Shown: positions 3,605 to 50,623 of the stretch, piece after piece
Position numbering within the stretch: position 1 is the stretch's first letter
How the letters are laid out: every line of letters starts with the position of its first letter
From: a virus
Lineage: Duplodnaviria > Caudoviricetes
Length of the DNA stretch: 64,000 bases
Direction: 5' to 3' (one strand)
IMG/VR virus record: IMGVR_UViG_3300014205_000006
Location: 1-64,000 of that record
Notes under the pieces: generated by a model
What the model was told of the DNA's origin: nothing
Databases searched by the model: none
What the model saw: only the letters and a program-made list of their open reading frames with translations
Translations under genes and position numbers: made by a program

Positions 3605-3605
3605 C

Positions 3606-5270: not shown

Positions 5271-5272
5271 TC

Positions 5273-5473
5273 ATGAGCAAGTGGCGCGCCGTCTGGATTC
5301 TGATCTTCATCGTCGGCGGCGCGGTCGAGTTCGCGGCGCTCGCCAATGACGCGCCCGACGACACGCTGAGCGAGCAGGTCTGGGCGCTCCTTGTCCTGTA
5401 CCCGGCGCTTGACGCTGTGATCGCGGCGGCGCTCGTGTGGTTGATCGTGCACTTCATCCGGCGGCCAAAGTGA
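5273..5473 (+). CDS. Small two-TM membrane protein
   Basis: Two hydrophobic helices, basic C-terminus; stop overlaps the next start (GTGA). Confidence 0.6.
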   Translation: MSKWRAVWILIFIVGGAVEFAALANDAPDDTLSEQVWALLVLYPALDAVIAAALVWLIVHFIRRPK

Positions 5474-12466: not shown

Positions 12467-12495
12467 ATAATACCTCGTACGTCGCACCGCGTCTA
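12467..12495 (-). promoter_or_regulatory. Leftward promoter P1 (TAGACG-17-TATTAT)
   Basis: One of eight copies with conserved spacer end CGA.GYRCGAGG. Confidence 0.75.
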
Positions 12496-12521
12496 CCCGC
12501 CCGCGTGTACGATTTGAGCCA

Positions 12522-13091
12522 TCAAGTTGTGGGTTGCTCGCCCTCGTCCTTGCCGAGAATGGCATACAGCCGGTCGGTGATCTCTCGCACCGTCTCCTCG
12601 GGAGTGCCATCGTTGTAGACCTCGATGACGGGGATGCGCGTGGGGATCATGGCGACCACCGCGTCAAACAGGAGGTCGATCATCGCCAACTGGATGTCGC
12701 TGAACCGATCGGCGCGGGCGGCGATGCACTTGTCGATGTCCCGCTTGACGTGCACCACAACCGTCTCGCGCGGCACGATGCGCCGCCAGTAGTAGTCCCA
12801 CACTGCCGGGTCGATGGGCTCGATGTTACGGAAGCGCCGGTACACATCTGCCGACGCGATGCCCCGGTCGCCGATGGCACTCGCGTCGAGGCGCTTGAGG
12901 ATGTCAGCCGTGGCCAAGTCCTCGGCGTAGTCGGCGATGCCGGGAATCGGCGAGCCGAGATGACCGCGCATCCCCAGCGCCTCCTCATGCCCTGTGAAGA
13001 GGTTGAGGACGGGGATGCTGAGTTCGTTGCTGAGGAGCGCGGCAAGAGTCGTCTTGCCCGCCCCGTCTACGCCTTCGAGCACGAGGTACAT
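12522..13091 (-). CDS. Thymidylate-kinase-like dNMP kinase
   Basis: YLVLEGVDGAGKTT P-loop and DR motif (GDRGIASADVY). Confidence 0.8.
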   Translation of the reverse strand: MYLVLEGVDGAGKTTLAALLSNELSIPVLNLFTGHEEALGMRGHLGSPIPGIADYAEDLATADILKRLDASAIGDRGIASADVYRRFRNIEPIDPAVWDYYWRRIVPRETVVVHVKRDIDKCIAARADRFSDIQLAMIDLLFDAVVAMIPTRIPVIEVYNDGTPEETVREITDRLYAILGKDEGEQPTT

Positions 13092-13102
13092 GAGAGGCCT
13101 TC

Positions 13103-13429
13103 CTAGCGTCGCACTGCCGCGACTTGCTGCTGGAGCAGGAACCGTTGCCGTTCGCGGAGGAACAGCCACGTCTTGAAGCAGACCGTGCAGAGCGCGTTGT
13201 CCAACGCTGCCTCGCGCACGGTCGAGTCCGTCTGATCGGGCAGCGCCTCGTGAACCTTGTGACGTCCGCAGTACATCACATCGAGGCGCGGGAAGCCGAT
13301 GTGGATCTTGTGATGAGGCTTTGCCTGGAACTCGTGCGACCGGATGCGGTCGTGCTCGGCGTGAGGCCGGTCGCAGACCGTCAGCGACGGGCGGAGGAGT
13401 GCGGAACACTTCGCGCGGGGACTAGTCAC
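13103..13429 (-). CDS. Cys/His-rich hypothetical protein
   Basis: Operonic; C..H, YCG, CTVC. Confidence 0.5.
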   Translation of the reverse strand: MTSPRAKCSALLRPSLTVCDRPHAEHDRIRSHEFQAKPHHKIHIGFPRLDVMYCGRHKVHEALPDQTDSTVREAALDNALCTVCFKTWLFLRERQRFLLQQQVAAVRR

Positions 13430-13871
13430 GAGTGGAGCCCTCCTGCTTGATCAAGGTGAAGGCGGCGATGAGGCCGTCCAGCACCATGTCAAACACCTTC
13501 GGCGTGAGTTCGGCGAGCACGAGCGGCGAGACCATCGGCGCGAGTTCCGCCGCCAGCGCGTCGGCAAGCGAGGGCGTCATGGCCTTCGCCTCGGGCTTGG
13601 AGGGCGGAGCCATGCCCTGTGCCGCTCCGTCAGCCGTAGCGCCATTCTGCGCTCTTGGCTTCCGCACGACCTTCACACCGGGCTTGGCGACCCGCCCGAC
13701 GTGCTTGATGCCCCAGTAGTTCAGCAGGTTCGCCATCACGGTCGATGAGATGTCGAACTTCCGCGCCGTCGCGTTGAAGCCCTCCCTGCGGTACGTGCGC
13801 TTGAAGTCATCCTTGTCGATGCCCTCGGCGCGTACCGCGATGGGGATTCCCAACTTGATTCCACCGGCCAT
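13422..13871 (-). CDS. Putative HTH DNA-binding protein
   Basis: GFNATARKFDISSTVMANLL..WGI helix-turn-helix pattern. Confidence 0.5.
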   Translation of the reverse strand: MAGGIKLGIPIAVRAEGIDKDDFKRTYRREGFNATARKFDISSTVMANLLNYWGIKHVGRVAKPGVKVVRKPRAQNGATADGAAQGMAPPSKPEAKAMTPSLADALAAELAPMVSPLVLAELTPKVFDMVLDGLIAAFTLIKQEGSTRD

Positions 13872-13899
13872 TTCAACCTCAATTCCAACGTCGGGCCAA

Positions 13900-15123
13900 C
13901 TACAGACAGAGCGTGAGACGGCGGGTCACCTCCATGTAGTCCTCGGTGCTGATGTCGTACGGGAGCGTGAAACGGACGGGGAGCGTGTCGCGTGCCGTGA
14001 TGAGCAGCAACCCCTCCTCGCGAGCCCGAGCGCACAACCCCTTCGGGTCATCCGTCCGAATCGCCATCATGTACCCGTAGTTGTACAGGCCCTTCGACCC
14101 GAACTGGTCGACAAGGTCGCGGGCCCTGTCGAGCATCGTGCTCAGCATGCCGCCTTCGAGTTCCTCGATGAGGCGCTTCGACAGGTAGCAACCCATCGGA
14201 CTCCCTGCCATCGTGTTGAAGTGCGAGCCGTGATCCATCACGTCGCCGATGTCGCCGCGCGTGACGGTGATGCTGAACGGCCAACCCGCGCCCGCCGCCT
14301 TGCCGAAGCACCAGATGTCCGGGTTCATCGGCACGAGGCTCCCGCCATACGCGCTGATGATGGACGGCACGCCGCCGACGCGCCCGAATCCGGTCTGGAC
14401 TTCATCGAAGATGATCACGCCGCCCGCCTCGCGGATGACCTTGGCCATCGCCCAGACCTCCTCCGGCCACTCCTCCAGAGTGTTGTTGCCGTTCAGCGGG
14501 CTGATGACGAGGGCCGCGACCTGACGCGGCGAGATTTCGCGCTCGCCGTGTCCGGCCTCCTGTCCCCAGTGCGGGTTGGTAACCTTCACCGCACCGTGCT
14601 CCATCATGCCGAGGGCGACGCCCATCTGCGGGTTCGGGTAGCCGAAGCCCTTGTGGTGGTACTCGGGCCCGTCTTGGATGGAGAGGTTCGCGAGTGAGCG
14701 CCCGTGAAAGTCGCCGGGGAGTCCGAGCACCCAGCCGCGCCCGGTCGCCCGGCGTGCGGTCTTGATCGCCGTCTCCACGGCCTCCTGCCCGCTGTTCGAG
14801 TAGAACACGCGGACGTTCTGGCCGAGCCCGAGGCGCTCCCCGAGCATGAGCGGGTACTCGTTGTCGCGCAGCGAGTTGAAGAGCATGTGCGGCTGACGGA
14901 AGGGCACGCCCGCCACGAGCCCATCGTTGATCCAGTCCTCCATGCGCTCATTCGAGATGGGCGAGGCCCCGGCGTCACCGAAGCAGTCGATCAGGTCGAC
15001 ATCGCCGCCCTCGCCGCTGAAGAGCCAGCGGGCTCCGGCTTGGCCGGACGGCTCGGCCAACTTGTCGAGCGTCGGGAAGTTGAGGTCAGGCTTGAAGGTG
15101 TTGAGGTCAGGGTTGAAGGTCAC
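13900..15123 (-). CDS. Class III PLP-dependent aminotransferase (ArgD/GabT/PatA family)
   Basis: NSGQEAVETAIK, FHGRS, IFDEVQTGFGRVG, PDIWCFGK (PLP lysine), HFNTMAGSP; GGAGG RBS before GTG 15123. Confidence 0.9.
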   Translation of the reverse strand: MTFNPDLNTFKPDLNFPTLDKLAEPSGQAGARWLFSGEGGDVDLIDCFGDAGASPISNERMEDWINDGLVAGVPFRQPHMLFNSLRDNEYPLMLGERLGLGQNVRVFYSNSGQEAVETAIKTARRATGRGWVLGLPGDFHGRSLANLSIQDGPEYHHKGFGYPNPQMGVALGMMEHGAVKVTNPHWGQEAGHGEREISPRQVAALVISPLNGNNTLEEWPEEVWAMAKVIREAGGVIIFDEVQTGFGRVGGVPSIISAYGGSLVPMNPDIWCFGKAAGAGWPFSITVTRGDIGDVMDHGSHFNTMAGSPMGCYLSKRLIEELEGGMLSTMLDRARDLVDQFGSKGLYNYGYMMAIRTDDPKGLCARAREEGLLLITARDTLPVRFTLPYDISTEDYMEVTRRLTLCL

Positions 15124-15449
15124 GCTTCCTCCTCCGGCACCAAGCCGCGTCCGACGACATAGGTCTGAGCGGCGGGCTGGACGCGGACGGGAGAGATCAG
15201 AGCCTCCAGCACCGACGCCATCCAACTCGTGAAGAACACCGCCATCAGGCCTGACGTAGAGAACAGGATGATGAGCGTGTACTTCACCGGCGCGAGAGGG
15301 TGAGGCTCGCAGACCCTCTCCTTCAAGGTGGCGCTGTAGAGGCAGTCCGCCGGGAACAGCGTGAACGCGAAGATGACAGCGCCGAGAAAGAGCAGGCTTT
15401 GCACGAGTGCCAACACTCGCAGAGCCTTGATGAGCTGCTTGTTGTCCAC
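15120..15449 (-). CDS. Two-TM membrane protein
   Basis: AGGAGG RBS; two hydrophobic helices. Confidence 0.6.
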   Translation of the reverse strand: MDNKQLIKALRVLALVQSLLFLGAVIFAFTLFPADCLYSATLKERVCEPHPLAPVKYTLIILFSTSGLMAVFFTSWMASVLEALISPVRVQPAAQTYVVGRGLVPEEEA

Positions 15450-15480
15450 GATGCCTCCTGCGGGCGATTCGTCCGGCGCG

Positions 15481-16473
15481 TTAGGCGCGGGGCGTCCAAG
15501 TCCAAGTCTCGGCGAGTTGCGGCTGATCCCACAGAGCCGCGTACTGCGGGATGCGTTCCTTCACGGCCTCGGCGTGCGCCGCCTCGATGACAGGGATCAG
15601 GTCGCCCGTCGCGATGGCCAAGCGCTCCCGCTCTTGGAAGTACATCGGGCAGACGGGGAGTTGGTCGCGCCCGTCCATGCGACGGATGTTCTCCTCGACG
15701 TAGGCGCACGTGTCGTACGAACCGTCAGAAGCGATGCACGGCGGCGTGACGAGGTTGCGGAACACCGGGTGCACCTTCGTGGCGAGTTCGTTGACCATCG
15801 AGGCGATGACCGGGGCCCAGAGCCCGCCCTGCAGAATCCAGCAGGAGCGCTCGCCGATGATGTGCGAGAGGGCGGCGAGGTTGATGCTCATCGCGATGCG
15901 GTGGGTCGCGCCGAGCGGGATGAGTTGGCGCGCGTCCTCCATCGGGACGCCCGACGCCACGAGTTCGTTGTACGCCGACTGGATGCCCTCCATCGCCGTG
16001 ATGAAGACGTCTGCCTCGGGCGAGCCGGTCTTGATCGTCTCGGGCAGGTGGTACGCGCCCTTGTCGGCGAACACGCCCATGTTCTGGATGCGCATCGACT
16101 GCGACCAGAAACTCGCGCCCTCCTCGGGAATGACGTCCACGCCGTAGTTCGGCCCGTACTTCACGCCGACGCGGTGACGGACTGCCTGCTCGCGCCAACT
16201 GACCGGCACGCCTTCGAGGATGAAGTTGAAGGTGATGAACTCACCGACCGGGATGCGCTCATCGAGGATGCGCTGGAAGAGCGACATCGCCTCGGCGCGC
16301 TCGCCGTCGAGGGAGTTGCGCGCCCGGAAGTCGTAGTCAAGGTTGAGGTTGCGGTAGCGCTGGAGAATCTCGTCCAGCGGCTCCTCGGACTTGGATGCGT
16401 CCCAGACGGCGAGCGTCTGAGAGATGGGGTTGGTGGTGTGACCAACCAGCGTGGCCTTCATCGTGTCGGACAA
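15481..16473 (-). CDS. thyX: ThyX-like flavin-dependent thymidylate synthase, divergent
   Basis: EFITFNFILEGV, REQAVRHR, SQSMR, EDARQLIPLG, NLAALSHII.ER, PPC...C. Confidence 0.75.
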   Translation of the reverse strand: MSDTMKATLVGHTTNPISQTLAVWDASKSEEPLDEILQRYRNLNLDYDFRARNSLDGERAEAMSLFQRILDERIPVGEFITFNFILEGVPVSWREQAVRHRVGVKYGPNYGVDVIPEEGASFWSQSMRIQNMGVFADKGAYHLPETIKTGSPEADVFITAMEGIQSAYNELVASGVPMEDARQLIPLGATHRIAMSINLAALSHIIGERSCWILQGGLWAPVIASMVNELATKVHPVFRNLVTPPCIASDGSYDTCAYVEENIRRMDGRDQLPVCPMYFQERERLAIATGDLIPVIEAAHAEAVKERIPQYAALWDQPQLAETWTWTPRA

Positions 16474-16644
16474 CTACAGTGCCTCCCGCGTGCGGATGTC
16501 GAGCAGGTCGCCCCGCTTCATGATAACGATTTGCTCGGGCTTGAGGTTGAGACGGATGAGAGTCACGCCGTGCTCATCGGTGACGTAGGCGACGTTGCGC
16601 GCCTCGTCAACTTCAACAAGCGCCTCGCCTGTGATCTTGAGCAT
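16474..16644 (-). CDS. 56-aa hypothetical protein
   Basis: GGAGG RBS; stop abuts the thyX start. Confidence 0.55.
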   Translation of the reverse strand: MLKITGEALVEVDEARNVAYVTDEHGVTLIRLNLKPEQIVIMKRGDLLDIRTREAL

Positions 16645-16746
16645 CCGAACCTCCGTGCCGAGGTTGAGCCGGGAGAGGAAGCGCGTGAACCACGCGTGAT
16701 CCGCGCCGCTCCCTCTCCCCGCAATTTGTGACTTGAGGGGCGCTGG

Positions 16747-16983
16747 CTAGATGGGCTCGCCCGAAACCGGGTCGAGTTCCGTCACGCCATCGTCCGCGAA
16801 CCGGCGGTGATCGCCGGTGGGCTCCGTGAGTTCGACGGGCTCGCCCGCCTCGCTCGCGTCGAGGTTGTTGCCGGCGTCCGCGGCAGCGGGCGTGTCGGCG
16901 TCCTGGTCGTTGTCGTCGGTCAGCTGTGCATCATCCTTCGGAGCGTCGGCGGCATCGCCGGGCGGCTTATTCTTCACGGCCAT
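16747..16983 (-). CDS. Highly acidic small protein
   Basis: D/E-rich; operonic. Confidence 0.55.
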   Translation of the reverse strand: MAVKNKPPGDAADAPKDDAQLTDDNDQDADTPAAADAGNNLDASEAGEPVELTEPTGDHRRFADDGVTELDPVSGEPI

Positions 16984-17518
16984 CGTCAGTCCCTTCTTCA
17001 ACGCCGGAGCCATCCAGCCCCGCACGTGCCTTGAGTTGGAGTTGCGCCTTGAACACGTCCTCAGCCGTCGCCGGTCGAGGGGTGTAGCGCGTCTGTACGG
17101 CAGTCGGCGGAGTCTCACACTCCGCGATCATCGCGGCGAGTTCGGGGTGCAGCGATGCATCCGCCTTCAGCGCCGCCTCGTTGATCTTCACGACCGTGGT
17201 CGTGACGACTTCCTCTGTGACGTACTTCTGGTACGCCTCCACGGTCAGGCTCTCCTTCAGCCGTTTGGCGAGCGCGGAGTCATCCACGCCGCCGCCCCGC
17301 ATCTGGAAGTAGCGCCCGGCCTTCACGCCGCCGCCGCCTGTGAGGACAACGCCGGTGAAGCCGCTTTCCTTGCCGACAAACTTGTCGGCCTCCGCCATCA
17401 CCCGGACGTAGGTTGCCTCCTCATTCTTCTTGGCCTCGGCCAAGGCGAGTTGCGCCTTGTCCCACGCCAAGATTGCGACAGCGACCTCGCCCGTTACGGC
17501 AATGACTTCCTCAGGCAT
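16967..17518 (-). CDS. Hypothetical protein
   Basis: Coiled N-terminus; operonic overlap. Confidence 0.6.
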   Translation of the reverse strand: MPEEVIAVTGEVAVAILAWDKAQLALAEAKKNEEATYVRVMAEADKFVGKESGFTGVVLTGGGGVKAGRYFQMRGGGVDDSALAKRLKESLTVEAYQKYVTEEVVTTTVVKINEAALKADASLHPELAAMIAECETPPTAVQTRYTPRPATAEDVFKAQLQLKARAGLDGSGVEEGTDDGREE

Positions 17519-17937
17519 TAGTTGGGCTCCACCGTCATCCGCGCGCCGGGCTTGATCACCCAAGCGAACGTATGAGACTTGGACTCCGACGTGCAACGCG
17601 CGGTGCCGTGCTCCGGCTCCCCCGCTCGCGTAGTCGTCAGCGTCAGGCGCGTACCGTCCAGGTGACAGGTGCGCTTGTCCAGCATCGACTCCAGCTGGTC
17701 GTCCCGCTTCGCGTGCGGGCTCGCAGCCTTGACCTCGGCGGCGGACTTGTCCGAGCGCTTGGCCCGAATCCAGTACGGCACCACTTGGTCAATTTGAACT
17801 CGTGACCGGCTCGGATTCGCCCTCTGGTGGGCGGGCGAGCGGGACACAGACTCGCTGATGGCGGCCTTGTGATCGTCGGCCAATCGGAAGCCCGGTGCTC
17901 GACCGCGCTTGCCCTTCGGCTTCACATCCTGTACCAT
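17518..17937 (-). CDS. NUMOD3-like motif plus Zn-ribbon protein
   Basis: GFRLADDHKAAISES; C..D...C....H; GGAGG RBS. Confidence 0.55.
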   Translation of the reverse strand: MVQDVKPKGKRGRAPGFRLADDHKAAISESVSRSPAHQRANPSRSRVQIDQVVPYWIRAKRSDKSAAEVKAASPHAKRDDQLESMLDKRTCHLDGTRLTLTTTRAGEPEHGTARCTSESKSHTFAWVIKPGARMTVEPN

Positions 17938-17978
17938 TCATCCTCCAATTTCAACGGGAGCGGGGCCCGTTACCCGAG

Positions 17979-18008
17979 ATATTACCTCGCGCCTCGTATC
18001 GGAGTCTA
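17979..18008 (-). promoter_or_regulatory. Leftward promoter P2 (TAGACT-18-TAATAT)
   Basis: Conserved spacer motif. Confidence 0.65.
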
Positions 18009-18713
18009 GGTGAGCCCGTCCATCGCCACCCGGAGGTTCGCGAGTCCGGCGGCGGCGGCATCCCACTCGGTCGCGAGCGCAAACGTCGGCACGCCCGCTT
18101 CAAGCATCTTCGCGAGGCGCTCCACGCTGTCGGAGAGGTACTGCGCGGAGTGAGCGGCCACGGCACGCGCGTCCGGCGTCTGCGGGTACTCGACGCTCGA
18201 CACATCGGCAACCGTGGTCACGACGGCAGAGGCGTAGTCCAACGGGTCGAGCAGACGCGAGGTGCCGCCATCCGCATCCTTCGTGAAGAACGGGTTGTCG
18301 TCCGTGCTCATGCCGAGGTGGACGTGCTGGCCGAATGACCAGCCTGTGTCGCCCTGCTGACCGAGGATGGTGTCGTAGTCGACCACATCGCCGACGCTGA
18401 CGTTGAGGTAGGCGAAGTGCGCGTACAGCGCCCGCGTCCCGTCGCCGTGGTCGATGATGCAGGAGAACCCGAAGGTGGCGCCCCACCAGTCGTCAGGCGT
18501 GCTCGTGAACACAACGCGGCCCGGCGCGACCGGCGGGATGAGCGAGTTCCAAGGGAACCCGAAGTCACATCCGCTGTGATCCTTGGTGTGGATGTCGTCG
18601 CGGACGCCCTTCAGACCTGTGAGCGTGCCGCGCAACTTGGCGGGCCCGCTGCCCCAGATGATCGGCTCATCGAAGTCCTTGCGCCCGAGCAGTTCGATTG
18701 CGAGTTGCATCAT
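18006..18713 (-). CDS. M23 (LytM-like) peptidase, endolysin candidate
   Basis: HSGCD, HGDGTRALYAH, GDTGWSFGQHVH. Confidence 0.85.
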   Translation of the reverse strand: MMQLAIELLGRKDFDEPIIWGSGPAKLRGTLTGLKGVRDDIHTKDHSGCDFGFPWNSLIPPVAPGRVVFTSTPDDWWGATFGFSCIIDHGDGTRALYAHFAYLNVSVGDVVDYDTILGQQGDTGWSFGQHVHLGMSTDDNPFFTKDADGGTSRLLDPLDYASAVVTTVADVSSVEYPQTPDARAVAAHSAQYLSDSVERLAKMLEAGVPTFALATEWDAAAAGLANLRVAMDGLT

Positions 18714-19495
18714 GCCTCCAGATAGTCTGCGACCGGACGCCCCATCACAAGAGCGAAGGCCGCGCTCACGGTGCCGTTGATCAACGCCTCGGCGTCGAGT
18801 TGCGACAGCCCCATCAGGGATGTGTCGCCAAACGAGTCGAAGGTCTTGGCCTCGAACGCTTGGTGAGCGATCAAGGTCGTCAACTCGGCGTCGGTGAAGA
18901 GCATGGGGTTCGCGCCGGGCGAGCCAAGCGCGAAGGCCGACTGCGCATAGCCCATGATGGTGGACGAGTTCAGCTGGAGGGCGGGCGGCTCAGGCGGATG
19001 CAACAGACCGAGCGCGTGCCCGATCTCATGCATCGTCAGGGCGATGCACCCCATGTACTCCAGCCGCTCATTGGCGGTGCGTCCGTGGAACCTCGCGTGC
19101 TGCGCGTCGGCGACCCGTCCCCACCCGATGGTCGCGAGTCCGCCCATGTCCGGGCGGGAGTTCCCAATCGTGTACGAATCGTCTGCGCCGCAACCCGATT
19201 GATCGGCGGGCATGCCGTAGATGAAGACCACCTTCAACGAGGGGTTCACGACCTCCTCGTCAACGGCGAGGACGCCATTCACCGTCCTCCAGACCTTCTC
19301 GGCGTGGTCGCGAATCTGTCCAAACGGGAGCATCGGCCCCCACACGAGGCGCGCCGGGACGCACTGAAGGCGTCGCCCGGTCTTGCGAGCGAACGCGAGC
19401 GTCACATCTTGCATGATGCGGTCGATGTCCGGCAGCACGCTCGCGCCGGGCCCGACGATGCCCTCAGGGATGTAGACGAAAGGCGAAGTGATCAC
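18710..19495 (-). CDS. Metzincin zinc metallopeptidase
   Basis: HEIGHALGLLH plus Met-turn STIMGY. Confidence 0.8.
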   Translation of the reverse strand: MITSPFVYIPEGIVGPGASVLPDIDRIMQDVTLAFARKTGRRLQCVPARLVWGPMLPFGQIRDHAEKVWRTVNGVLAVDEEVVNPSLKVVFIYGMPADQSGCGADDSYTIGNSRPDMGGLATIGWGRVADAQHARFHGRTANERLEYMGCIALTMHEIGHALGLLHPPEPPALQLNSSTIMGYAQSAFALGSPGANPMLFTDAELTTLIAHQAFEAKTFDSFGDTSLMGLSQLDAEALINGTVSAAFALVMGRPVADYLEA

Positions 19496-19524
19496 TCAGA
19501 CCTCCGATTGCTGGTAGTCCAACT

Positions 19525-21327
19525 CTAGTGGTCCGAGTCATCCTCACCGACGATGGGAATCTCGCCCTGCATCGCCGCCTTCCAATCCTTGCGTGACCAG
19601 CGGCGGAACAGGGCCGTCTCCGTGCCGTCCTGAACGGCGTCGCCGAGCGCCTCACGGCCCTTCATGACGTGGTACACGACCTGCTCGAAGGTGTCGAGGA
19701 CGTTCATCGTGTAGACGACAGGGCGGCGCGACTGTCCGCCCCGGTGCAGTCGTCCCTCGCGCTGCTCGATCATCTTCGCGGGGTTCCAGAGACAGTCGTA
19801 ATGGACCAGAGCAGACGCGCCGTAGAAATCGAACCCGTACGCCATCGCGTCGCTCGCCACCACCCAAATCTGCTCTCCGGCATTCACACGGTCGCTGATC
19901 TCCTGACGCCGCTTCACCGGTGTGCCGCCGTGGAGGTACACGACCTCGTGACGAGTCCGCGCGGCGAGCGCCTCATAGATGCGCTCGGCGGTACTCGTCC
20001 ACTGGCTGAACATCATCACCGAATCGGAGTCATGCGGTTCGAGCAGTTCGAACAGCGCATCCATCTTGGAGCCCTCGACCGGATACTTGTCGTGGACGAT
20101 GTTCGGTGAATTGAGGAACTGGCGCAGCCGGAGCGTCTGGACGAGCGGGTCATCCTTCGAGTCGCTGCCGGTCGTGGCCAGCCACAGGAAGAAGTCATCG
20201 CACATCATGTTGTACCAGCGACGCTCCTGCGGCGAGAGTTCCACGTCAACCATGACGGGCACCTTCTCGGGCAGTTGCGGCATCAAGACCTCTTTGCGCC
20301 GCCGGACGATGTAGGGCGCGATGATCTCGTTGAACTCGGGGAGCGTCTGCCAGTTCGTCCCGACCACGTGTCCCCAACGGTCTGTCTGGAGGAACTTGTC
20401 GCGGAACGCGGTGAAGTTCCCGAGCAGACCGGGACGGAGGATGCCGCCCACGAGGTTGTAGACGTCCTCAAGGTGCATCTCCAGCGGCGTCGCCGTCATG
20501 CCGGTGAGCCCGACCTCGGTGCGAATCGCTTGGAGACGCTTGTGAGTCTGTGACTGTGAGTTCTTGCCCTTCGTGAACTCGTCGGCGAACACCTTCACCC
20601 AGTCGCGCGGCACCCATGGCTTCCCCCAGTCATGCCGGAGGTACAACTCATAGCCGACCACCTTGATCGGCGTCGGGAGTTCCCAGAGCGCGCGGCGCTT
20701 CTTGTCCGACCCCTCGATGACGGTGACGAGTTCGTCCACCTGTGCATCGTCAAGGCCGAAGTGAATCTTGTACTGCGACCGGATGTTGAGGCGCAAGCCC
20801 GAGGGAACAACCCACAGGATGGAGTTGGGCCCGACGATGTGGCCGCCCGCTTGGTGGGTGAGAATCGCGTCGAGGGTCTTGCCCGTCCCCACCGGGTCGC
20901 CGAGGAGCGAGCCGCCCTCAATCGTGTTGAGCATCCGCTCGGCGACCTTCTGGTAGCCACGGATGTCGGGCGTAACGATGCCCGGCGGGCGCTCCCAGTC
21001 GGGAAGGTCGAGCAGGAAGGCGAGGTCAGCGACCTTGTCCGCCGCCGCCCGCATGCGCTTGAGGCGCGCGTTCAACACCGGCTCGATCAACACGTCGCCG
21101 AGGGCGGCGAGTTTCGTGGCCAGTCCGTTCGCATGGTCGATGGGGATGGCCCAGTGCTTCAAGCCTGGCTTCCACGTCCGGCCCGGCGTGGCCTTCGTGA
21201 CGCGCAAGGCCTCCTCGAAGGCGGCGCTGTTCTCCCAATCGAAGGTGAGGGAAGCGTGGGTTGCGGACAGTTCGCGAAGGGTGAAGATCACGCGTGCACC
21301 GGGCAGTTCAAGATCAATTCCATCCAT
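19525..21327 (-). CDS. SNF2-family helicase/ATPase with N-terminal HARP-like region
   Basis: GDPVGTGKT, ADEF, MTATP, MFSQW, WNPAKM..QREGRLHR. Confidence 0.85.
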   Translation of the reverse strand: MDGIDLELPGARVIFTLRELSATHASLTFDWENSAAFEEALRVTKATPGRTWKPGLKHWAIPIDHANGLATKLAALGDVLIEPVLNARLKRMRAAADKVADLAFLLDLPDWERPPGIVTPDIRGYQKVAERMLNTIEGGSLLGDPVGTGKTLDAILTHQAGGHIVGPNSILWVVPSGLRLNIRSQYKIHFGLDDAQVDELVTVIEGSDKKRRALWELPTPIKVVGYELYLRHDWGKPWVPRDWVKVFADEFTKGKNSQSQTHKRLQAIRTEVGLTGMTATPLEMHLEDVYNLVGGILRPGLLGNFTAFRDKFLQTDRWGHVVGTNWQTLPEFNEIIAPYIVRRRKEVLMPQLPEKVPVMVDVELSPQERRWYNMMCDDFFLWLATTGSDSKDDPLVQTLRLRQFLNSPNIVHDKYPVEGSKMDALFELLEPHDSDSVMMFSQWTSTAERIYEALAARTRHEVVYLHGGTPVKRRQEISDRVNAGEQIWVVASDAMAYGFDFYGASALVHYDCLWNPAKMIEQREGRLHRGGQSRRPVVYTMNVLDTFEQVVYHVMKGREALGDAVQDGTETALFRRWSRKDWKAAMQGEIPIVGEDDSDH

Positions 21328-21344
21328 TCCTGCCCGATGCACGC

Positions 21345-21600
21345 ACGACGCTGGCCGGCACCCGCGTCGCTTACGAGGGAGAGGCGACGGGCCGCAGGGT
21401 TAAGCCCATCGCCCCTCCCCGGTCTGTGCGAGTCCGCCCTGTCCCGCTAGGATTTCAGGGCGGACTCGCGTGACGGTTCACGGTCTTGTCGCTTCGCGCC
21501 TACAGTGGGCCGTGACCCCGCCCGGCGCTGAATCCGCAACTCACCGTGGTTGCCCACTCTCCCGTCAATCCTCGGCGGTGCCAATCGCCGGGGCTTCCTT
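21345..21600. ncRNA. Structured non-coding region (long 5' leader or sRNA)
   Basis: At least five hairpins, including a perfect 14-bp stem 21428-21441/21456-21469; directly downstream of promoter P3. Confidence 0.45.
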
Positions 21601-21602
21601 CA

Positions 21603-21631
21603 ATTCTACCTCGCGTCTCGTACCGCGTCTA
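21603..21631 (-). promoter_or_regulatory. Leftward promoter P3 (TAGACG-17-TAGAAT)
   Basis: Conserved spacer motif. Confidence 0.75.
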
Positions 21632-21713
21632 GGCGGGGCGACCACGACCATCGGATGCGGCGACGGAACGCGGTTGCGGCAGTTGTCGCAGACCTTGCCG
21701 TAGGGGAGTGGCC

Positions 21714-22040
21714 TCATTCGCTCGCCTTGCGAATGGCCTGTCCATTCGGACAGATGCAGAAGTTCACGCGACCTGCCATGACGCCCGCTGACGACCTCGC
21801 GCCTGACGTGTCGATGCGACCGGAGTTCCCGCAGAGGGAGCACAGGCCGCTGTCGGCGGTGTAGTGCGCCATCCAGTAGTCGGTGATGTTGTTCGGTGGC
21901 GGCGCGCAGTCCTCCGCCTCCTTCACCGCCCGCATGAGTTGCTGGAATTCGACGCGGTTGAGGGCATCAAAGGATTGGTCTGACGGGAGCCCGTCAAGCA
22001 CCGACTGGATGTAGACCTTGGCGGCATCAACGGCATTCAA
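21714..22040 (-). CDS. Zn-finger hypothetical protein
   Basis: CSLCGNSG...FCICPNG. Confidence 0.55.
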   Translation of the reverse strand: MNAVDAAKVYIQSVLDGLPSDQSFDALNRVEFQQLMRAVKEAEDCAPPPNNITDYWMAHYTADSGLCSLCGNSGRIDTSGARSSAGVMAGRVNFCICPNGQAIRKASE

Positions 22041-22664
22041 CTAGCGCTCCAAACTGAACACGCGACCGGCCTTGACGATGAGGGGCGTACCCTCGGGCCC
22101 GACGATGGTTGGCGGGAACCAGTCGAGGCGCTCCTGCGACCGACCCTTGCCGTAGAGGACGGTGCGGAAGTGACCGCGCCGGATGTGACGAGTCGTCAGG
22201 TGCCGTCCTGTCGGGTCGCTGTCGCGCGCCTCGCGGACGACCTTGCGCAACTTGATCCAGCGGAGCGTCGGCGGCTTTCGCCGGGCGCGCTGCCAGCGCT
22301 TCCGCTCGGGACGGCTTGCCTCGCCCTCGTCCATGACGACAATCCGGCTCCGGGCGATGGCGGCGGCGGTCACGAGGTACTTCAGGATCATCGTCATCCC
22401 GAGTTCCGCGCCACTGATGATTTTATCAGAGTCTGCATCATCTATGCGAAGCCCGACGTCATTGAATGCCTTGATGTTGATCGCAGTATTGTTCTCCGCC
22501 GCGATGCGGATGGAGCCTCCGGCCGGGATGGAGCATGCGTTCGCGCCGTTGTTGCGGCCGTCATACGGCATCACCACCAAGCCGTCCTCTGTACCGGCGA
22601 ATGCATATATGGATGTGATCCCGACCATTTGGATTTGTCCGTCGAGGGCGAGTATGGGGACCAT
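22041..22664 (-). CDS. Hypothetical protein with C-terminal RHxRRGHFR motif (possibly frameshift-joined to the upstream ORF)
   Basis: RHIRRGHFRTVLYGKG...WFPPTIVGP. Confidence 0.6.
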   Translation of the reverse strand: MVPILALDGQIQMVGITSIYAFAGTEDGLVVMPYDGRNNGANACSIPAGGSIRIAAENNTAINIKAFNDVGLRIDDADSDKIISGAELGMTMILKYLVTAAAIARSRIVVMDEGEASRPERKRWQRARRKPPTLRWIKLRKVVREARDSDPTGRHLTTRHIRRGHFRTVLYGKGRSQERLDWFPPTIVGPEGTPLIVKAGRVFSLER

Positions 22665-22704
22665 CAGCGGCTCCTCAAGGAACAGACCGATGCTCTCGCC
22701 GCCC

Positions 22705-23855: not shown

Positions 23856-23888
23856 TTCTGGCCTCCCTGCGCAAACCCCGTTTCCTCG

Positions 23889-23917
23889 ATACTACCTCGT
23901 ATGTCGCTGAACGTCGA
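23889..23917 (-). promoter_or_regulatory. Leftward promoter P4 (TCGACG-17-TAGTAT)
   Basis: Conserved spacer motif. Confidence 0.65.
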
Positions 23918-40705: not shown

Positions 40706-41124
40706 AGTTGGGCGAGCCAGAGGAGTTGAAGTTGACGCAGATTGAAGAGGGCACCCGTTCCGTGGTCGTGGACTTCATCCACACCGATGAGGGGCTCACG
40801 ATGTCGTGGCAGGGCATCGAACTGCCGCGCGAGGAGTTCTTCAAGTTCCTCGACGGACTGAAGCGCATCATCGGGATGAGGGCGGCGATGCTCTCCCACC
40901 CGCAGACCGGCATCTGGCGCGTTGACGAGGCCTCGCTGAAGGCCTACGGCAAGACGCAGGACGCGACGCGGCCCTTGATCGAGGGCTACATTCAGGGCTA
41001 CTTCGGCGTGGGCTCGGTCGAGGTCACCGTGTCAGACGCCCGGACGCCCGCGCCCATCTCCTCGCCGCCGTCCGCCGTTGGCGGCCCCTCGTGGCGGCAG
41101 CGCCAAGCGGAGGGTCTGCGATGA
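40702..41124 (+). CDS. Hypothetical protein
   Basis: ATGA coupling on both sides. Confidence 0.6.
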   Translation: MKLGEPEELKLTQIEEGTRSVVVDFIHTDEGLTMSWQGIELPREEFFKFLDGLKRIIGMRAAMLSHPQTGIWRVDEASLKAYGKTQDATRPLIEGYIQGYFGVGSVEVTVSDARTPAPISSPPSAVGGPSWRQRQAEGLR

Positions 41125-44100
41125 CCCTCATCGGCCCTGAGGACTTCGTTGACCTCCACGTCCACACGACCTTCTCATACCTCGACGGGATTGGGCACCC
41201 CGCCGACGTGATCAAGCGCGCCGCCGAGTTGGGGCGCAAGGCGATTGCGATCACAGACCACGGCAGCGTCTCCGGCCACCCGTACTTCGAGATTGCCGCC
41301 GGGAAGTCTGGCATCAAACCCATCTTCGGCTGCGAGGTGTACCAGACCGGCTCGGCGGCGGGCGACAAGGCGAACAAGAAGCGGGTCAACCGTCACCTGT
41401 CCGTCCTCGCCCGGAATGAGCGCGGCTACCAGAACCTGCTCGGCCTCGTGAGCCAGTCATACCGTGACTTCTACTACAAACCGCTCACGGACAACAAGAA
41501 CCTCGGCGATCACCTTGAAGGCCTTGTCGTGATGTCCGGGTGCCTCTCGGGTCACATCGCTGAGCGACTCCTCATCAACGACTTCGACGGCGCGTTGAAG
41601 GCTGCGCAAGCCTTCCGTGACGCGCTCGGCGATGACTACTACCTTGAGACCCAGTTGTTCGACCTTGACGACACGCGCAAGGTGAACTACGGCGTGATGG
41701 ACTTGGCGAAGCAGACCGGCATCCCGCTCGTGATGACCGGCGACGTCCACATGATGACGGAGGATCAGCGCGACGTTCGCAAGTTGCTCCACAAGGTGCG
41801 CGACGGCAAGGGCTGGTATGACGAGGACGCGGGTGACTTCCAGTACCTGTCCGAGTACCAGTTGCTCCCGCACGAGTTGGAGCACTTCGCTGACAAGGCC
41901 GGGCTGCTCCCCATCTTCAAGGAGGCGGCGGAGAACACGCTGGCCATCGCCGAGAAGTGCACGGTGGCCATCCCCAAGTCCGAGTTCATCCACTTCCCGA
42001 TTCCGTGCCTTGAGTGCGGCGAGGACGAGGTTCAGCACGACGGCTCGAAGTGTGTTGGCGGGTACGTCCCGCGCTTCAAGTCGAATGCCGAGATGTTCTA
42101 TCAGCAGATTCACGATGGCTGCGCCTTCAGGGGAGTTGACTTCAACAACCCGACGATCAAGGCACGCATCTTGTACGAGGCGGGGCTGATCGAGTCCAAG
42201 AACTTCACTGACTACTTCCTCGTGGTCGGTGACCTCGTGCGGTGGTCGAAGGATCAAGGCATCTTGGTCGGCCCGTCGCGCGGCTCCTCGGCGGGCTCGC
42301 TCATCTGCTGGCTCCTGCGCATCACGGAGATCAACCCTCTGGACTTCGGGCTCCTGTTCGAACGCTTCATCGATGTGCTGCGCTCCGATCTGCCCGACAT
42401 CGACATCGACTTCGACTCGAACAAGCGCCAGCAAGTCCGTGACTACATGGCGCGGAAGTACGGCAACGACCGGGTGGGGATGCTCGGAACCTTCACGCAG
42501 TGGAAGGGCAAGAACGCCCTCGACTCGGTAGGCCGCGTGTTCGGCATCCCCAAGACTGACGTCGAGACAGTGAAGAACCTGATCATCGACCGTTCGAGCG
42601 CTGACGCTCGCGCCGGGGCGACGATTGAGGACACGTTCTCAGCGTTCCCTGCGGCAGAGGCGGTCGCGAAGAAGTACCCCGACATCATGCGAGCGGTCGC
42701 CCTTGAGGGACAGTACAAGGGGTGGTCAACTCACGCTTGCGGCTTCATGGTCTCCTCGCGCCCGTTGGAGGAGGTCTGCGCGTTCTACTACAAGCCTGAC
42801 GACCCTCACGGCATCGTCAGCGTCGACAAGAAGGGCGCTGACCACCTCGGGCTCATCAAGATTGACATCCTCGGCATCTCGGCGCTGTCGGTCATCCAAG
42901 AGTGCCTCACGGCGACCGGGATGTCGATGGGCGACCTGTATGACATGACGCGCCCGGACTCGCTCGCCGACCCGATGGTGCTCGACGGCTTCAGCCGTCA
43001 GGACATCTTCGGCATCTTCCAGTTCGAGGGGAACGCCATGCGCTCCGTCCTCAGCGAGTTCGATGCGCCGGTCACGTTCGCGGAGTTGGCCGATATGGTC
43101 GCCCTCTGTCGGCCCGGCCCACTCCACGGCGGCATGACGCGCAACTACGTCCTGATCAGGAACGGCATCGGCGAGCCGACCACCCTTCACCCGTCCGTGG
43201 ACGAGCAACTGGCCTACACGTACGGACAGGTGGTCTATCAGGAGCAACTGCTCAACATCGCCCGCTACGTCGGCCAGATGACTTGGGAGTCGATCAACGA
43301 CCTCCGCAACTCGATGGCCCGCAAGTACGGCAAGGAGCACATGAACTCCATGCGCGAGGAGTTCGTGACGGGCTCTGTGAAGTCCGGCCTGACGGAGGCG
43401 CAGGCAATCGCCACGTGGGAGTCGATGGTCTCGTTCGGACAGTGGGCCTTCAACCTCTCGCACAGCGTCGGATACGCCATCCTCGCGTACTGGGCGATGT
43501 ACTTCAAGCAGCACTACCCGACGCAGTTCTACGCAGCCGCGTTGAACAACGGGCCGGACGACAACCTCAAGCGGATGTACCTCTTGGAGTTCCAGCGGAA
43601 GGGCGGCGTGATCCTGCCGCCGCACATCAACAAGTCCGGCTCCGGCTGGACGGTGGACTCCCACATGCGGATTCGCGCCGGGTTCGCCGCCATCGACGGC
43701 ATCGGCGATACGGTCGCCGCCCGCATCGTGGCGGGACAGCCGTACGCCGACGCTGCCGACCTCGCCGGGCGACGGACTCACCAGCCGACCATCGCCAACC
43801 CGAACCGGATGGCCGTGGTCGCGAACAAGGCTCACATCGCCGCCCTCGACCGCGTGGGCGCGTGGAGTGACGAGGAGGCGATGGATGACTTCCTCGGTCT
43901 CAAGTCGCTCACCGATGCGCTTGACAACTGCGGGGCGACGCACAAGATCGGCCTGATCCAACACGCCGACGAAGGCGACATGTTCGTGGCGGGCGTGCTC
44001 TCGCGTCGCAACCAGCGCTCCACCGCTGAAGAGGAGCACGAGCGCTCCCGGCGCGTTGACCCGGTGACGGGCGAGTTGCAGATCATCGAGCGCCGGGCGC

Positions 44101-44411
44101 TGTCGCGACCCGACCTTGACGAGTTCTGCATCTTCAACGTCGAGGACGACACCGGCATCATCGTCGGATACGTCAACCGCTTCCGCTACCCGAAGTTCAA
44201 GCAACTGATCTGGCAGACGGCTCGCGACGGCGACATCGTCCTGCTCCAAGGCACGAAGTCAGCCGGGCGTCGCCGCGTGGACGTGGACTACATGGAGATC
44301 ATGTACCGTCAGCGGCCTGATCGGACGTACCAGCCCTATGACCAGTGGGTCGAGGAGCAAGAGGAGGCTGAAGCAGCCGCCGCAGCACTGGCGCAGGAGG
44401 CGACGGCATGA
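41121..44411 (+). CDS. dnaE: DNA polymerase III alpha subunit (family C) with intact PHP domain
   Basis: LHVHTTFSYLDG, TDHG, RGSSAGSL, PDIDIDF, KIDILG, FQFEG, YQEQ, FNLSHSVGY. Confidence 0.95.
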   Translation: MTLIGPEDFVDLHVHTTFSYLDGIGHPADVIKRAAELGRKAIAITDHGSVSGHPYFEIAAGKSGIKPIFGCEVYQTGSAAGDKANKKRVNRHLSVLARNERGYQNLLGLVSQSYRDFYYKPLTDNKNLGDHLEGLVVMSGCLSGHIAERLLINDFDGALKAAQAFRDALGDDYYLETQLFDLDDTRKVNYGVMDLAKQTGIPLVMTGDVHMMTEDQRDVRKLLHKVRDGKGWYDEDAGDFQYLSEYQLLPHELEHFADKAGLLPIFKEAAENTLAIAEKCTVAIPKSEFIHFPIPCLECGEDEVQHDGSKCVGGYVPRFKSNAEMFYQQIHDGCAFRGVDFNNPTIKARILYEAGLIESKNFTDYFLVVGDLVRWSKDQGILVGPSRGSSAGSLICWLLRITEINPLDFGLLFERFIDVLRSDLPDIDIDFDSNKRQQVRDYMARKYGNDRVGMLGTFTQWKGKNALDSVGRVFGIPKTDVETVKNLIIDRSSADARAGATIEDTFSAFPAAEAVAKKYPDIMRAVALEGQYKGWSTHACGFMVSSRPLEEVCAFYYKPDDPHGIVSVDKKGADHLGLIKIDILGISALSVIQECLTATGMSMGDLYDMTRPDSLADPMVLDGFSRQDIFGIFQFEGNAMRSVLSEFDAPVTFAELADMVALCRPGPLHGGMTRNYVLIRNGIGEPTTLHPSVDEQLAYTYGQVVYQEQLLNIARYVGQMTWESINDLRNSMARKYGKEHMNSMREEFVTGSVKSGLTEAQAIATWESMVSFGQWAFNLSHSVGYAILAYWAMYFKQHYPTQFYAAALNNGPDDNLKRMYLLEFQRKGGVILPPHINKSGSGWTVDSHMRIRAGFAAIDGIGDTVAARIVAGQPYADAADLAGRRTHQPTIANPNRMAVVANKAHIAALDRVGAWSDEEAMDDFLGLKSLTDALDNCGATHKIGLIQHADEGDMFVAGVLSRRNQRSTAEEEHERSRRVDPVTGELQIIERRALSRPDLDEFCIFNVEDDTGIIVGYVNRFRYPKFKQLIWQTARDGDIVLLQGTKSAGRRRVDVDYMEIMYRQRPDRTYQPYDQWVEEQEEAEAAAAALAQEATA

Positions 44412-49436: not shown

Positions 49437-49642
49437 TGGCGCTCCCTCGGGCCCGCGTGTGGGGACAGGGTGAGTCCCGTCAGACGTCTGACGCGCCCGC
49501 CACTGTCCAATCGCCCCGCCGGGCGGCGTTCAACGCCTTCGTCAAACTGCTCTCGTCTCACACTGACGAGAACATCATGTACACGAAACATCGCTGCGAG
49601 CAGTGTGACCTCGCGTTCAGTGCATGGCTGGAGTTGCTATGA
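49436..49642 (+). CDS. Small hypothetical protein
   Basis: Coupled; CEQC. Confidence 0.45.
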   Translation: MALPRARVWGQGESRQTSDAPATVQSPRRAAFNAFVKLLSSHTDENIMYTKHRCEQCDLAFSAWLELL

Positions 49643-50133
49643 CGTTGCGGATTTGCGAGTGGGAAGATTGGCTGGCGCACGGGAGCCCGGAGCACGATTA
49701 TCACACGCTGTCGCTCCCGCTCGGGCACGCACTGCCCGGCATCTGGCGTTGCCCGCCCGGCTGCCCCGTCGCGATGTTCAACAAGGACTGGCACGACCAC
49801 GCGCCCGAATCGCCGTGGCCGCACCTGAAGGTCGCGCCCGAGCCGACACTTGAAGAGGTCATCGCCGAGTACCTCGAATGGGCCAACGAGACGTTCCCCA
49901 CGGCGACGCCCACGAGTGCCGTGGTTCACCTCTCCCGCGAGGTCGCTGAACTCTTGGACGAACCGACCGATGGCGAGGAGCAGAGCGACGCGCTGATGCT
50001 GCTCCTCCACGCCGCGCACCTGTCGGGCAACGACATGAAGTACGAACTCCGCCGCAAGTTGGCGATCAACCGGGCCCGGACGTGGGGCAAGCCGGACGCT
50101 GACGGAGTCGTGGAGCACGTCCGCGATGAGTAG
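49639..50133 (+). CDS. DUF550/MazZ-like dNTP pyrophosphohydrolase
   Basis: EWANETF, HL.REV.EL, E..D..ML, KL.IN..RTW...DGV.EH. Confidence 0.7.
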   Translation: MTLRICEWEDWLAHGSPEHDYHTLSLPLGHALPGIWRCPPGCPVAMFNKDWHDHAPESPWPHLKVAPEPTLEEVIAEYLEWANETFPTATPTSAVVHLSREVAELLDEPTDGEEQSDALMLLLHAAHLSGNDMKYELRRKLAINRARTWGKPDADGVVEHVRDE

Positions 50134-50623
50134 CAGCATCACCGACAAGCCGTGCATCGCCTGCGGCCTTCCGCGCAAGTGGTTCTCCTACAGCGAGGGC
50201 TACACGAGCGGGGCGTACTGGAATGAGCCCTGCCAGCACTGCCCGTCCGGGCACGGTCGGATGCCTTGGCCCGAATACTTCAAGGGCATCGCCATCGCCG
50301 TGAGCGCTCGCGCGTCCTGCCCTCGCGACACGGTAGGCGCGGTCATCGTGGACGCCTACCACCGAGTGATCGCGACCGGCTACAACGGCGCAGCGCCCGG
50401 CGAGGATGAGTGCGTCGAGGTCGGCTGCCGCATCGAGGACGGGCACTGCCAGCGGGCGAATCACGCCGAGGTCAACGCCCTCGCCGATGCCGCCGCCCGA
50501 GGCGTGAGCGTTCGCGGGTGCACGATGTACCTGTACCGCGAGCGGTTCCCTGACCTCGGCGTCTGCCGTGAGTGCGACAAGTTGGTCAGAGCAGTTGGGC
50601 TCTACAAGGTGGAGGTCGTGTGA
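50126..50623 (+). CDS. dCMP deaminase
   Basis: W.EYF..IA.....ASC...VGAVIV, TGYNG, HAEVNA, C.EC. Confidence 0.85.
   Translation: MSSSITDKPCIACGLPRKWFSYSEGYTSGAYWNEPCQHCPSGHGRMPWPEYFKGIAIAVSARASCPRDTVGAVIVDAYHRVIATGYNGAAPGEDECVEVGCRIEDGHCQRANHAEVNALADAAARGVSVRGCTMYLYRERFPDLGVCRECDKLVRAVGLYKVEVV

Follow-up and report, generated by a model that had tools for sequence, protein, structure and literature searches.

A divergent ThyX, a class III aminotransferase and a thymidylate-kinase-like kinase as the possible core of a conserved phage module for tailoring pyrimidine deoxynucleotides

The first 64,000 nucleotides of the virus record IMGVR_UViG_3300014205_000006 (hereafter the window) encode a divergent ThyX-like protein, a class III pyridoxal phosphate (PLP) aminotransferase and a thymidylate kinase (TMK)-like kinase in a single minus-strand unit. 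We propose that these genes form the centre of a conserved module of five enzymes, completed by a small flavoprotein and a fusion of a MazG-like pyrophosphatase with an NT5C-type nucleotidase, that would tailor a pyrimidine deoxynucleotide before replication, a reading to which we give an even chance of being right. The product would be an amine-bearing C5-substituted dUMP made pre-replicatively, most simply 5-aminomethyl-dUMP, and here too our judgment is evenly balanced, with substrates, step order and product all inferred from the predicted enzymes. A further step, that in phages of this kind all or most thymidine gives way to 5-aminomethyl-2'-deoxyuridine, or to a nucleoside close to it that also bears an amine, made entirely at the mononucleotide level, is possible, but we lean against it.

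The original prediction had placed a divergent ThyX near a class III aminotransferase and a TMK-like kinase, in a leftward unit between two promoters, and both parts of this description hold. Once their starts are corrected, all three genes are present in a minus-strand unit (12522-16473) that also contains three small open reading frames (ORFs), with intergenic gaps of -8 to 31 nt and a copy of a promoter-like motif on either side, at 18008 and 12495. Linkage of the aminotransferase to nucleotide genes in related phages, which had been named as a test, is also found. The three genes are adjacent in nine of ten assembly contigs. All six contigs with close aminotransferase relatives share the order DnaE – ThyX-like – aminotransferase – kinase – (x) – RecA, and two of three further contigs reached through the ThyX-like protein have an aminotransferase adjoining the ThyX-like gene, in one of them only 30% identical. 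A scan of IMG/VR with a ThyX-like profile gave 50 loci, whose neighbours were assigned by local HMM searches, and in 31 of these an aminotransferase, a kinase and a MazG–HAD protein lie beside the ThyX-like gene; a related-locus search with the single aminotransferase sequence found nothing. Among 33 non-redundant module loci, an aminotransferase adjoins the ThyX-like gene in every one (28-50% identity), the kinase is present in 31, the MazG–NT5C fusion in 29 and the flavoprotein directly upstream of the fusion in 27. Gene order varies, with the aminotransferase before or after the ThyX-like gene, and adjacency is kept. Among close relatives, no protein of the region is better conserved than the ThyX-like protein (45-56% identity) and the aminotransferase (44-49%), against 32-37% for DnaE and 34-37% for RecA. 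The arrangement is not due to chance, as the trio recurs side by side in dozens of phage loci that have diverged from one another, and this pattern supports their assignment as a predicted functional unit tied to deoxynucleotide metabolism. Several relatives carry variable proteins of 236-299 aa beside the module, for which we found no Pfam or NCBIfam match and no mutual BLAST similarity.

The ThyX-like protein is recognized by Pfam Thy1 (PF02511; E 2.1e-18, 67.2 bits against a cut-off of 24.8), scores 47.1 bits against the TIGR02170 equivalog with its cut-off of 87.9, and has Thermotoga maritima ThyX as its PDB profile match. Foldseek, run on an AF2 model built from 66 homologues (pLDDT 88.5), matches only ThyX/PolB (probability 1.00, TM-score 0.63-0.72 normalized to target length, about 19-20% identity). 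The family is sizeable, with 407 matches at E<=1e-5, many on contigs of 90-110 kb. In an alignment of 66 members the RHR motif (residues 99-101), S126, which is the equivalent of Ser88, and R128, R182 and R209, which align to the dUMP-binding R90, R147 and R174 of T. maritima, are invariant or nearly so. Because these residues are kept, the enzyme should still bind flavin and a uracil 5'-nucleotide.

Other parts of the active site are altered throughout the family. A long RHR-to-S spacer and an SMRI motif had been pointed out before, and both proved real: the spacer is 24 residues compared with 7 in T. maritima, with a 16-residue insert after RHR that holds across the 66 members and is disordered in the AF2 model, and SMRI stands where T. 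maritima has SGRY. Residue 129, at the position of Tyr91, is an Ile, Leu or Val throughout the 50 loci, and Gln or Glu stands in place of His53. Work on T. maritima ThyX describes Tyr91 as strictly conserved and critical: mutating it makes flavin oxidation about 1000-fold slower, and a hydrogen bond between H53 and Y91 organizes the folate site (PMC11940539). The joint loss of both residues suggests altered chemistry, though it is no proof of it. The family also carries a C-terminal extension of about 110 residues with four cysteines invariant in 66 sequences (C211, C246, C256 and C275), the first of which sits two residues past the Arg174 equivalent, and these may form a Zn or Fe-S site beside the active site. 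In one related contig (L002, 3391-10004), the genes for DnaE (1333 aa) and the ThyX-like protein (871 aa) both carry intein/Hint domains, and the latter also an HNH domain. Inteins usually occupy conserved sites in important enzymes.

The aminotransferase was listed as an ORF extending to 15225, of which the first 34 codons look non-coding; the true start is a GTG at 15123, preceded by the Shine-Dalgarno sequence GGAGGAGGA and overlapping the stop codon of the upstream 109-aa ORF. The protein matches Pfam Aminotran_3 (PF00202) at 4e-37 (128 bits against a cut-off of 30.5), and its family profile matches the PDB acetylornithine aminotransferase 2eh6 over its full length (1e-58, positions 16-375), with diamine and diaminobutyrate aminotransferases also among the PDB matches. 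The PLP lysine (FGKAAG), FDEVQTGFGR, HFNT with the phosphate-binding Thr, DFHGR and the C-terminal carboxylate-binding Arg (P-V-R-x-x-P-P) are all kept in the family, so in all likelihood it is a functional transaminase, from the branch whose members turn terminal aldehydes into amines and back with glutamate and 2-oxoglutarate. NCBIfam equivalogs all score four- to sevenfold under their cut-offs, the best at 114 bits against 552, and the N-terminal substrate segment is rebuilt relative to ArgD/OAT/GabT. A further change is in the canonical E-P-x-Q-G-E-G-G, which reads S-P-x-N-G-N-N-T in the window: GNN or GHH replaces the GEGG segment in 33 of 33 non-redundant module aminotransferases, with Asn or His in each at the position of the QGEGG glutamate, which we take to be the switch glutamate of the ArgD/OAT/GabT branch. 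As this change is common to all 33, it points to one new substrate specificity, with GNN/GHH as its shared derived feature. Close relatives number only nine (44-49% identity, E 1e-84 to 1e-109), after which come bacterial ArgD-like proteins at about 1e-23. No fused "Rosetta stone" form of the aminotransferase was found in the phage clade; fusions are only cellular (ArgB–ArgD, arginase–OAT, SDR–aminotransferase and kinase–aminotransferase, 1e-31 to 1e-47).

If the aminotransferase belonged instead to a nucleotide-sugar pathway, it would make an amino sugar for the GT2 protein of this genome or for virion glycosylation genes, and its location would be incidental. The GT2 gene itself (Table 1) speaks for this, as do a NAD-dependent epimerase/dehydratase (SDR) that lies between the ThyX-like gene and the aminotransferase gene in one related locus (L011:8981-10099) and the existence of cellular SDR–Aminotran_3 fusion proteins (P0397, P0399 and P0402). 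The SDR occurs in that locus only, however, the module contains no conserved nucleotidyltransferase or 4,6-dehydratase, and no homologue of GT2, nor of the DUF550 or dCMP deaminase genes, was found within the flanks of the related loci. Sugar 4-keto aminotransferases, moreover, are of the DegT class, not class III. An amino sugar for GT2 had been offered as the alternative in the original prediction; with GT2 33 kb away, that suggestion finds no support here, and we consider it highly improbable.

The kinase gene likewise needed a new start. The listed 295-aa ORF (to 13409) is over-extended and overlaps a separate 108-aa ORF with high GC3 in another frame (13103-13429), and the start is an ATG at 13091, 11 nt past that ORF, giving a P-loop protein of 189 aa. 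It matches the thymidylate kinase family phrog_761 at 2e-7 and has weak PDB matches to TMK and adenylate kinase. An alignment of eight orthologues shows the TMK motifs, P-loop EGxDGxGKT, DR..S..Y and LID R..R, shared by all, with G10, G13, G15, K16, R79, S83, Y87, R129 and R132 invariant in all eight. The kinase has no specific relationship to PaMx11 gp49, a DNA kinase acting on 5-hydroxymethyldeoxyuridine (5-hmdU); its profile aligns with gp49 at the P-loop and nowhere else.

In close relatives the module directly adjoins DnaE, and in the window the flavoprotein and fusion genes have stayed beside DnaE on the plus strand. The flavoprotein, which also lies upstream of the MazG–HAD gene in related loci, belongs to a family of 884 representative clusters at E<=1e-10. 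Its Pfam matches are confined to the N-terminal Rossmann region, and module flavoproteins fall into two size classes that both have the FAD Rossmann N-terminus. The AF2 model (pLDDT 95) aligns best with UDP-galactopyranose mutase (UGM; VIA-align Z 16, 255/271 residues, 18% identity), followed by protoporphyrinogen oxidase (PPOX; Z 14) and aromatic hydroxylases (Z 13.5); UGM has three domains, among them a helical one that binds uridine, and at 271 aa against 365-510 in UGM the protein must lack a domain. The flavoprotein profile also matches the PDB chain 8ucs_A (290 aa, "OmpA family protein") beyond the Rossmann loop (positions 51-243, E 2.8e-4), and 8ucs, its name notwithstanding, may be a solved structure from the same family of small flavoproteins.

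In the fusion protein family, the DxDG(V) nucleophile, T/S-x-R-K and DK...ED motifs are invariant, and an all-alpha N-terminal domain has conserved E/D residues. The window protein itself gives a weak HAD_PNKP match only; its orthologue in locus L011 passes both the MazG cut-off (22.2 bits against 22) and that of NT5C (32.2 against 24.8). Downstream of the fusion gene come RecA, GT2, DUF550 and dCMP deaminase genes, the last two of which probably serve the nucleotide pool and the supply of dUMP. Thymine replacement had been expected to involve a dCMP deaminase and pool-cleaning pyrophosphatases, and the genome has them (PF00383; DUF550; the MazG–NT5C fusion). No trimeric dUTPase was found in the genome.

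These enzymes could be joined into a pathway as follows. The dCMP deaminase would supply dUMP, and the ThyX-like flavoenzyme would move the methylene of methylenetetrahydrofolate (CH2-THF) to its C5 position. Without the Tyr91/His53 pair, the enzyme would then release the C5 one-carbon unit in non-reduced form. This product could be 5-hydroxymethyl-dUMP, or else the exocyclic methylene could carry an amine or glycine as an adduct. The small flavoprotein would oxidize this product to 5-formyl-dUMP or cleave the glycine adduct in the manner of MnmC/NGTO, and the aminotransferase, as an aldehyde/amine (omega-type) enzyme, would set the final primary amine, with 5-aminomethyl-dUMP as the simplest product. 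The dedicated kinase would convert this to the diphosphate, which would then pass through host NDP kinase and be built into DNA by the phage DnaE, while the MazG–NT5C fusion would clear the competing canonical pyrimidine by taking dTTP or dUTP to the monophosphate and on to the nucleoside.

A transaminase needs a carbonyl, and for this reason we considered two chemically sensible routes for supplying one. In the first, 5-hydroxymethyl-dUMP would be oxidized by the flavoprotein to 5-formyl-dUMP and then transaminated to 5-aminomethyl-dUMP, a step that fits the activity of the ArgD/OAT/GabT branch on terminal aldehydes and amines. In the other route, ThyX-like catalysis would resemble that of MnmEG, with glycine or ammonia captured on the methylene; trimming of the adduct would fall to the flavoprotein, and the aminotransferase would handle a carbonyl by-product or the final amine. 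Both routes would end at 5-aminomethyl-dU. The conserved flavoprotein, which the original prediction had not linked to the ThyX trio, is the likeliest candidate for making the carbonyl.

We also considered a different division of labor, in which the aminotransferase and flavoprotein make or recycle a small donor, such as glycine from glyoxylate or a diamine, and the ThyX-like enzyme couples this donor to the dUMP methylene as MnmEG does, giving a larger adduct of thymine with an amino acid or polyamine and not 5-aminomethyl-dU. MnmG, TrmFO and ThyX share flavin-iminium methylene transfer, and amine nucleophiles are known to attack the exocyclic methylene in tRNA and phage DNA pathways (PMC8989533). 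In phage PaMx11, 5-NmdU arises through flavin-dependent cleavage of a glycine adduct (PMC11472151), and the diamine and diaminobutyrate aminotransferases among the PDB matches would suit such a role. On the other hand, the flavoprotein profile aligns with PaMx11 gp47 at the Rossmann loop and not detectably beyond it, the module has no decarboxylase- or ligase-like gene, and phages would seldom need their own supply of a common metabolite. We regard a donor-making role as distinctly improbable.

A more serious rival to the tailoring of an amine-bearing dUMP is ordinary thymidylate supply. If the ThyX-like protein is a divergent but genuine thymidylate synthase, then the kinase would be a phage TMK, the MazG–NT5C fusion would police dUTP, and the aminotransferase and flavoprotein would be auxiliary, serving the regeneration of one-carbon or amino-acid co-substrates or the metabolism of amino acids or polyamines, and linked to the others only through co-expression with replication genes. 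The genome contains no ThyA, and the ThyX-like gene is its sole thymidylate-synthase homologue. The residues for flavin binding and the dUMP-binding arginines are kept, as noted above, and the aminotransferase is a normal ArgD-type enzyme in every feature except the GEGG glutamate. Several further observations weigh against a tailoring module. The family is also present on its own in complete phages of 45-65 kb. A quick maximum-likelihood tree puts the 16 unaccompanied ThyX-like genes in a single clade (SH-aLRT 98) apart from 32 module-linked genes, and a search of five whole phage records of this clade, 37-65 kb long, with at least 90% completeness in four and terminal repeats in three, revealed no aminotransferase. 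The proteins of this clade carry the same insert, the same replacements of Tyr91 and His53 and the same four cysteines. In these phages the ThyX-like enzyme would most simply make dTMP, so the odd motifs of the family are no proof of a product other than dTMP. Of the five module genes, contig L010 has all but the aminotransferase. The kinase scores 18.1 bits against Pfam Thymidylate_kin (PF02223), with a cut-off of 27 that its orthologue in locus L005 does attain (28.6 bits), and 26.1 against TIGR00041, with a cut-off of 83. The fold of the flavoprotein resembles UGM and PPOX and no known alcohol oxidase, and this fold match gives no function. In the window itself the module is split, with the trio about 25 kb from the flavoprotein and fusion genes.

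Given the clade without an aminotransferase and contig L010, plain thymidylate supply therefore remains a serious rival, which we nevertheless judge rather unlikely. No member of the family retains Tyr91 or His53, on which efficient canonical turnover depends, and in a plain dTMP pathway the fused pyrophosphatase and nucleotidase would be wasteful of dUMP or dTMP. In addition, an aminotransferase adjoins the ThyX-like gene in 33 diverged loci, with a derived active-site motif common to the whole clade, and the window aminotransferase reaches only about 1e-23 with the nearest cellular enzymes, against 1e-84 to 1e-109 within the close phage clade.

No cultured phage is close to this one, and megablast finds no near relatives in INPHARED. 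In tblastn searches of that database, aminotransferase, DnaE and ThyX-like queries gave only distant matches of 25-36% identity, those of the aminotransferase being mostly bacterial contamination records and that of DnaE being to mycobacteriophage DnaE, and the kinase query gave none. The complete genome is 101,277 bp long, with 65.8% G+C and a 123-bp terminal repeat, and the window is its first 64 kb. A landfill metagenome, probably its source, is the sole sequencing run in which this DNA was found, in the form of contigs, and no RNA run with it is listed. The promoter-like motif that flanks the ThyX unit, TMGACK-N17/18-TANWAT, has eight co-oriented matches on the minus strand within 12467-32384, and the spacers of all eight terminate in a conserved CGAGGTA-like repeat. 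The three small ORFs of the unit (109, 149 and 108 aa) have no Pfam or NCBIfam match and no detectable relatives, and homologues of the 109- and 149-aa proteins were sought in the related loci and not found. Just upstream of the unit, 18006-19495 encodes an M23 peptidase of 235 aa and a 261-aa protein with weak Matrixin/Reprolysin matches that may be a zinc metalloprotease, and a SNF2-type helicase is encoded at 19525-21342. A DUF559 protein (Vsr-like endonuclease fold) and a PD-(D/E)XK nuclease are encoded after RecA (46013-47205), and the DUF559 protein is kept there in most close relatives. In a more distant module-bearing contig of 100.6 kb from an NCBI assembly (L009), the module is immediately preceded by genes for an AAA ATPase of the CbbQ/MoxR type and for a CobT/VWA protein (2946-6479), and the contig also encodes a sigma-70-like factor.

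Table 1. Positions of the ThyX unit and of the other genes considered here, in window coordinates
Feature	Position	Strand	Basis or remark
Promoter-like motif TAGACT-N18-TAATAT, upstream of unit	17979..18008	-	pattern scan
ThyX-like flavin-dependent dUMP C5-modifying enzyme (predicted), 330 aa	15481..16473	-	Pfam Thy1, alignments, AF2 model, Foldseek
109-aa ORF, between ThyX-like and aminotransferase genes	15120..15449	-	high GC3
Class III (ArgD/OAT-like) PLP aminotransferase, 407 aa	13900..15123	-	Pfam Aminotran_3, PDB profile match, motifs
149-aa ORF, lineage-specific	13422..13871	-	high GC3
108-aa ORF, lineage-specific	13103..13429	-	high GC3
Thymidylate-kinase-like dNMP kinase, 189 aa	12522..13091	-	TMK motifs, phrog_761, start-codon analysis
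Next promoter-like motif, marks end of unit	12467..12495	-	pattern scan
Small flavoprotein, FAD Rossmann domain, 271 aa	39075..39890	+	Pfam N-terminal Rossmann matches, AF2, structural alignment
MazG-like NTP pyrophosphatase–NT5C/HAD 5'-deoxynucleotidase fusion, 272 aa	39887..40705	+	alignment, orthologue Pfam scores
DnaE-type DNA polymerase	41091..44411	+	tblastn, 36% identity to mycobacteriophage DnaE
GT2	48471-49436		downstream of the fusion gene
DUF550 (dATP/dGTP pyrophosphohydrolase family) and dCMP deaminase genes	49624..50623	+	Pfam PF04447 2.8e-12, PF00383 4.5e-16

If the tailoring of an amine-bearing dUMP is borne out, it would represent a new enzymatic logic for phage DNA hypermodification, with flavin-dependent one-carbon transfer, oxidation and transamination all taking place on free nucleotides, in phages of roughly 100 kb that are widespread but uncultured. 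Should the amine-bearing nucleoside also replace thymidine as outlined at the start, a hypermodified DNA base would for the first time be reached through ThyX, and for the first time through a transaminase, without recourse to the chemistry of 5-hmdU DNA kinase and aGPT-Pplase. Such tailoring would imply new specificities for ThyX, for class III aminotransferases and for the small flavoprotein family of 884 representative clusters. It would also be a natural enzymatic route to amine-functionalized dUTP, which chemists already use as a handle for modified DNA (PMC6331837), and such bases matter for resistance to restriction enzymes and CRISPR, for sequencing and for phage-therapy work. Even if the product is plain dTMP, a ThyX-like family without Tyr91 and His53 and with four invariant cysteines would be a mechanistically informative variant of thymidylate synthase. 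The window contributes a rearranged form of the module, with the trio in a leftward promoter unit amid three lineage-specific small ORFs, and the analysis adds the residue-level account of Tyr91, His53 and the four cysteines, a GNN signature found throughout the aminotransferase family, the PaMx11 negatives described below and the sister clade that lacks an aminotransferase.

With canonical ThyX (T. maritima TM0449, Mycobacterium tuberculosis, PBCV-1) and the UMP/dUMP methylase PolB, the ThyX-like protein shares the fold, RHR and the equivalents of Ser88, Arg90, Arg147 and Arg174, and differs in the insert in its active-site loop, the replaced Tyr91 and His53, the Cys-bearing C-terminal extension and a score under the TIGR02170 cut-off. 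With ArgD/OAT/GabT (PDB 2eh6, 1vef and 3ruy), the aminotransferase shares a full-length profile match, the PLP lysine, DEVQTG, FHGR and the C-terminal Arg, and differs in the changed QGEGG glutamate, the rebuilt N-terminus, the low equivalog scores and its context of nucleotide metabolism. A chemical parallel is the formation of cmnm5U and nm5U in tRNA by MnmE/MnmG and the FAD domain of MnmC, where a CH2-THF methylene is likewise moved to the C5 of uracil, an amine adduct forms and a flavoprotein trims it to the aminomethyl group (PMC8989533). This pathway differs in that its substrate is tRNA and not a deoxynucleotide, and in that it includes no aminotransferase.

In phage thymidine hypermodification as it is known so far, a ThyA-type hydroxymethylase is followed by DNA-level steps of 5-hmdU DNA kinase (5-HMUDK) and aGPT-Pplase, and 5-aminomethyl-dU is a proven DNA-level intermediate in PaMx11 (PMC8989533, PMC11472151, PMC13458397). 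We searched the complete genome for PaMx11 gp46 (aGPT-Pplase2), gp47 (NGTO), gp49 (5-HMUDK) and gp51 and found none by phmmer (E<=10), while tblastn gave only chance matches of 15-26 residues; as these searches used single reference sequences, very distant homologues could escape them. Nothing like the ThyA-type synthase of PaMx11 turned up in the genome either. Without visible homologues of gp46, gp47 or gp49, a DNA-level route of the known type is therefore not visible. PF18909 had been taken up as a profile for aGPT-Pplase and turned out to be a different family, so that the search with it was uninformative. A full-text literature search found no paper on a route that combines ThyX with an aminotransferase.

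The enzyme set has the outline of a thymidine-replacement pathway and differs from every published route. We compared it with the 5-hmdU of SPO1-type phages, with PhiW-14, SP10, ViI and M6, with the 5-NmdU/5-AcNmdU of PaMx11 and with the dapT of SH-Ab 15599. Like these systems of thymidine replacement or hypermodification, it has a dCMP deaminase, a synthase homologue acting on dUMP and pyrophosphatases or nucleotidases that would clean the pool; a flavoprotein and a PLP enzyme occur in some of the known pathways as well, and amine-bearing C5 side chains are among their products. In contrast to them, the synthase here is of the ThyX type, no homologues of 5-HMUDK, aGPT-Pplase or NGTO accompany it, and the PLP enzyme is a class III transaminase and not a decarboxylase. 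The kinase, finally, is TMK-like, which points to chemistry at the level of the mononucleotide.

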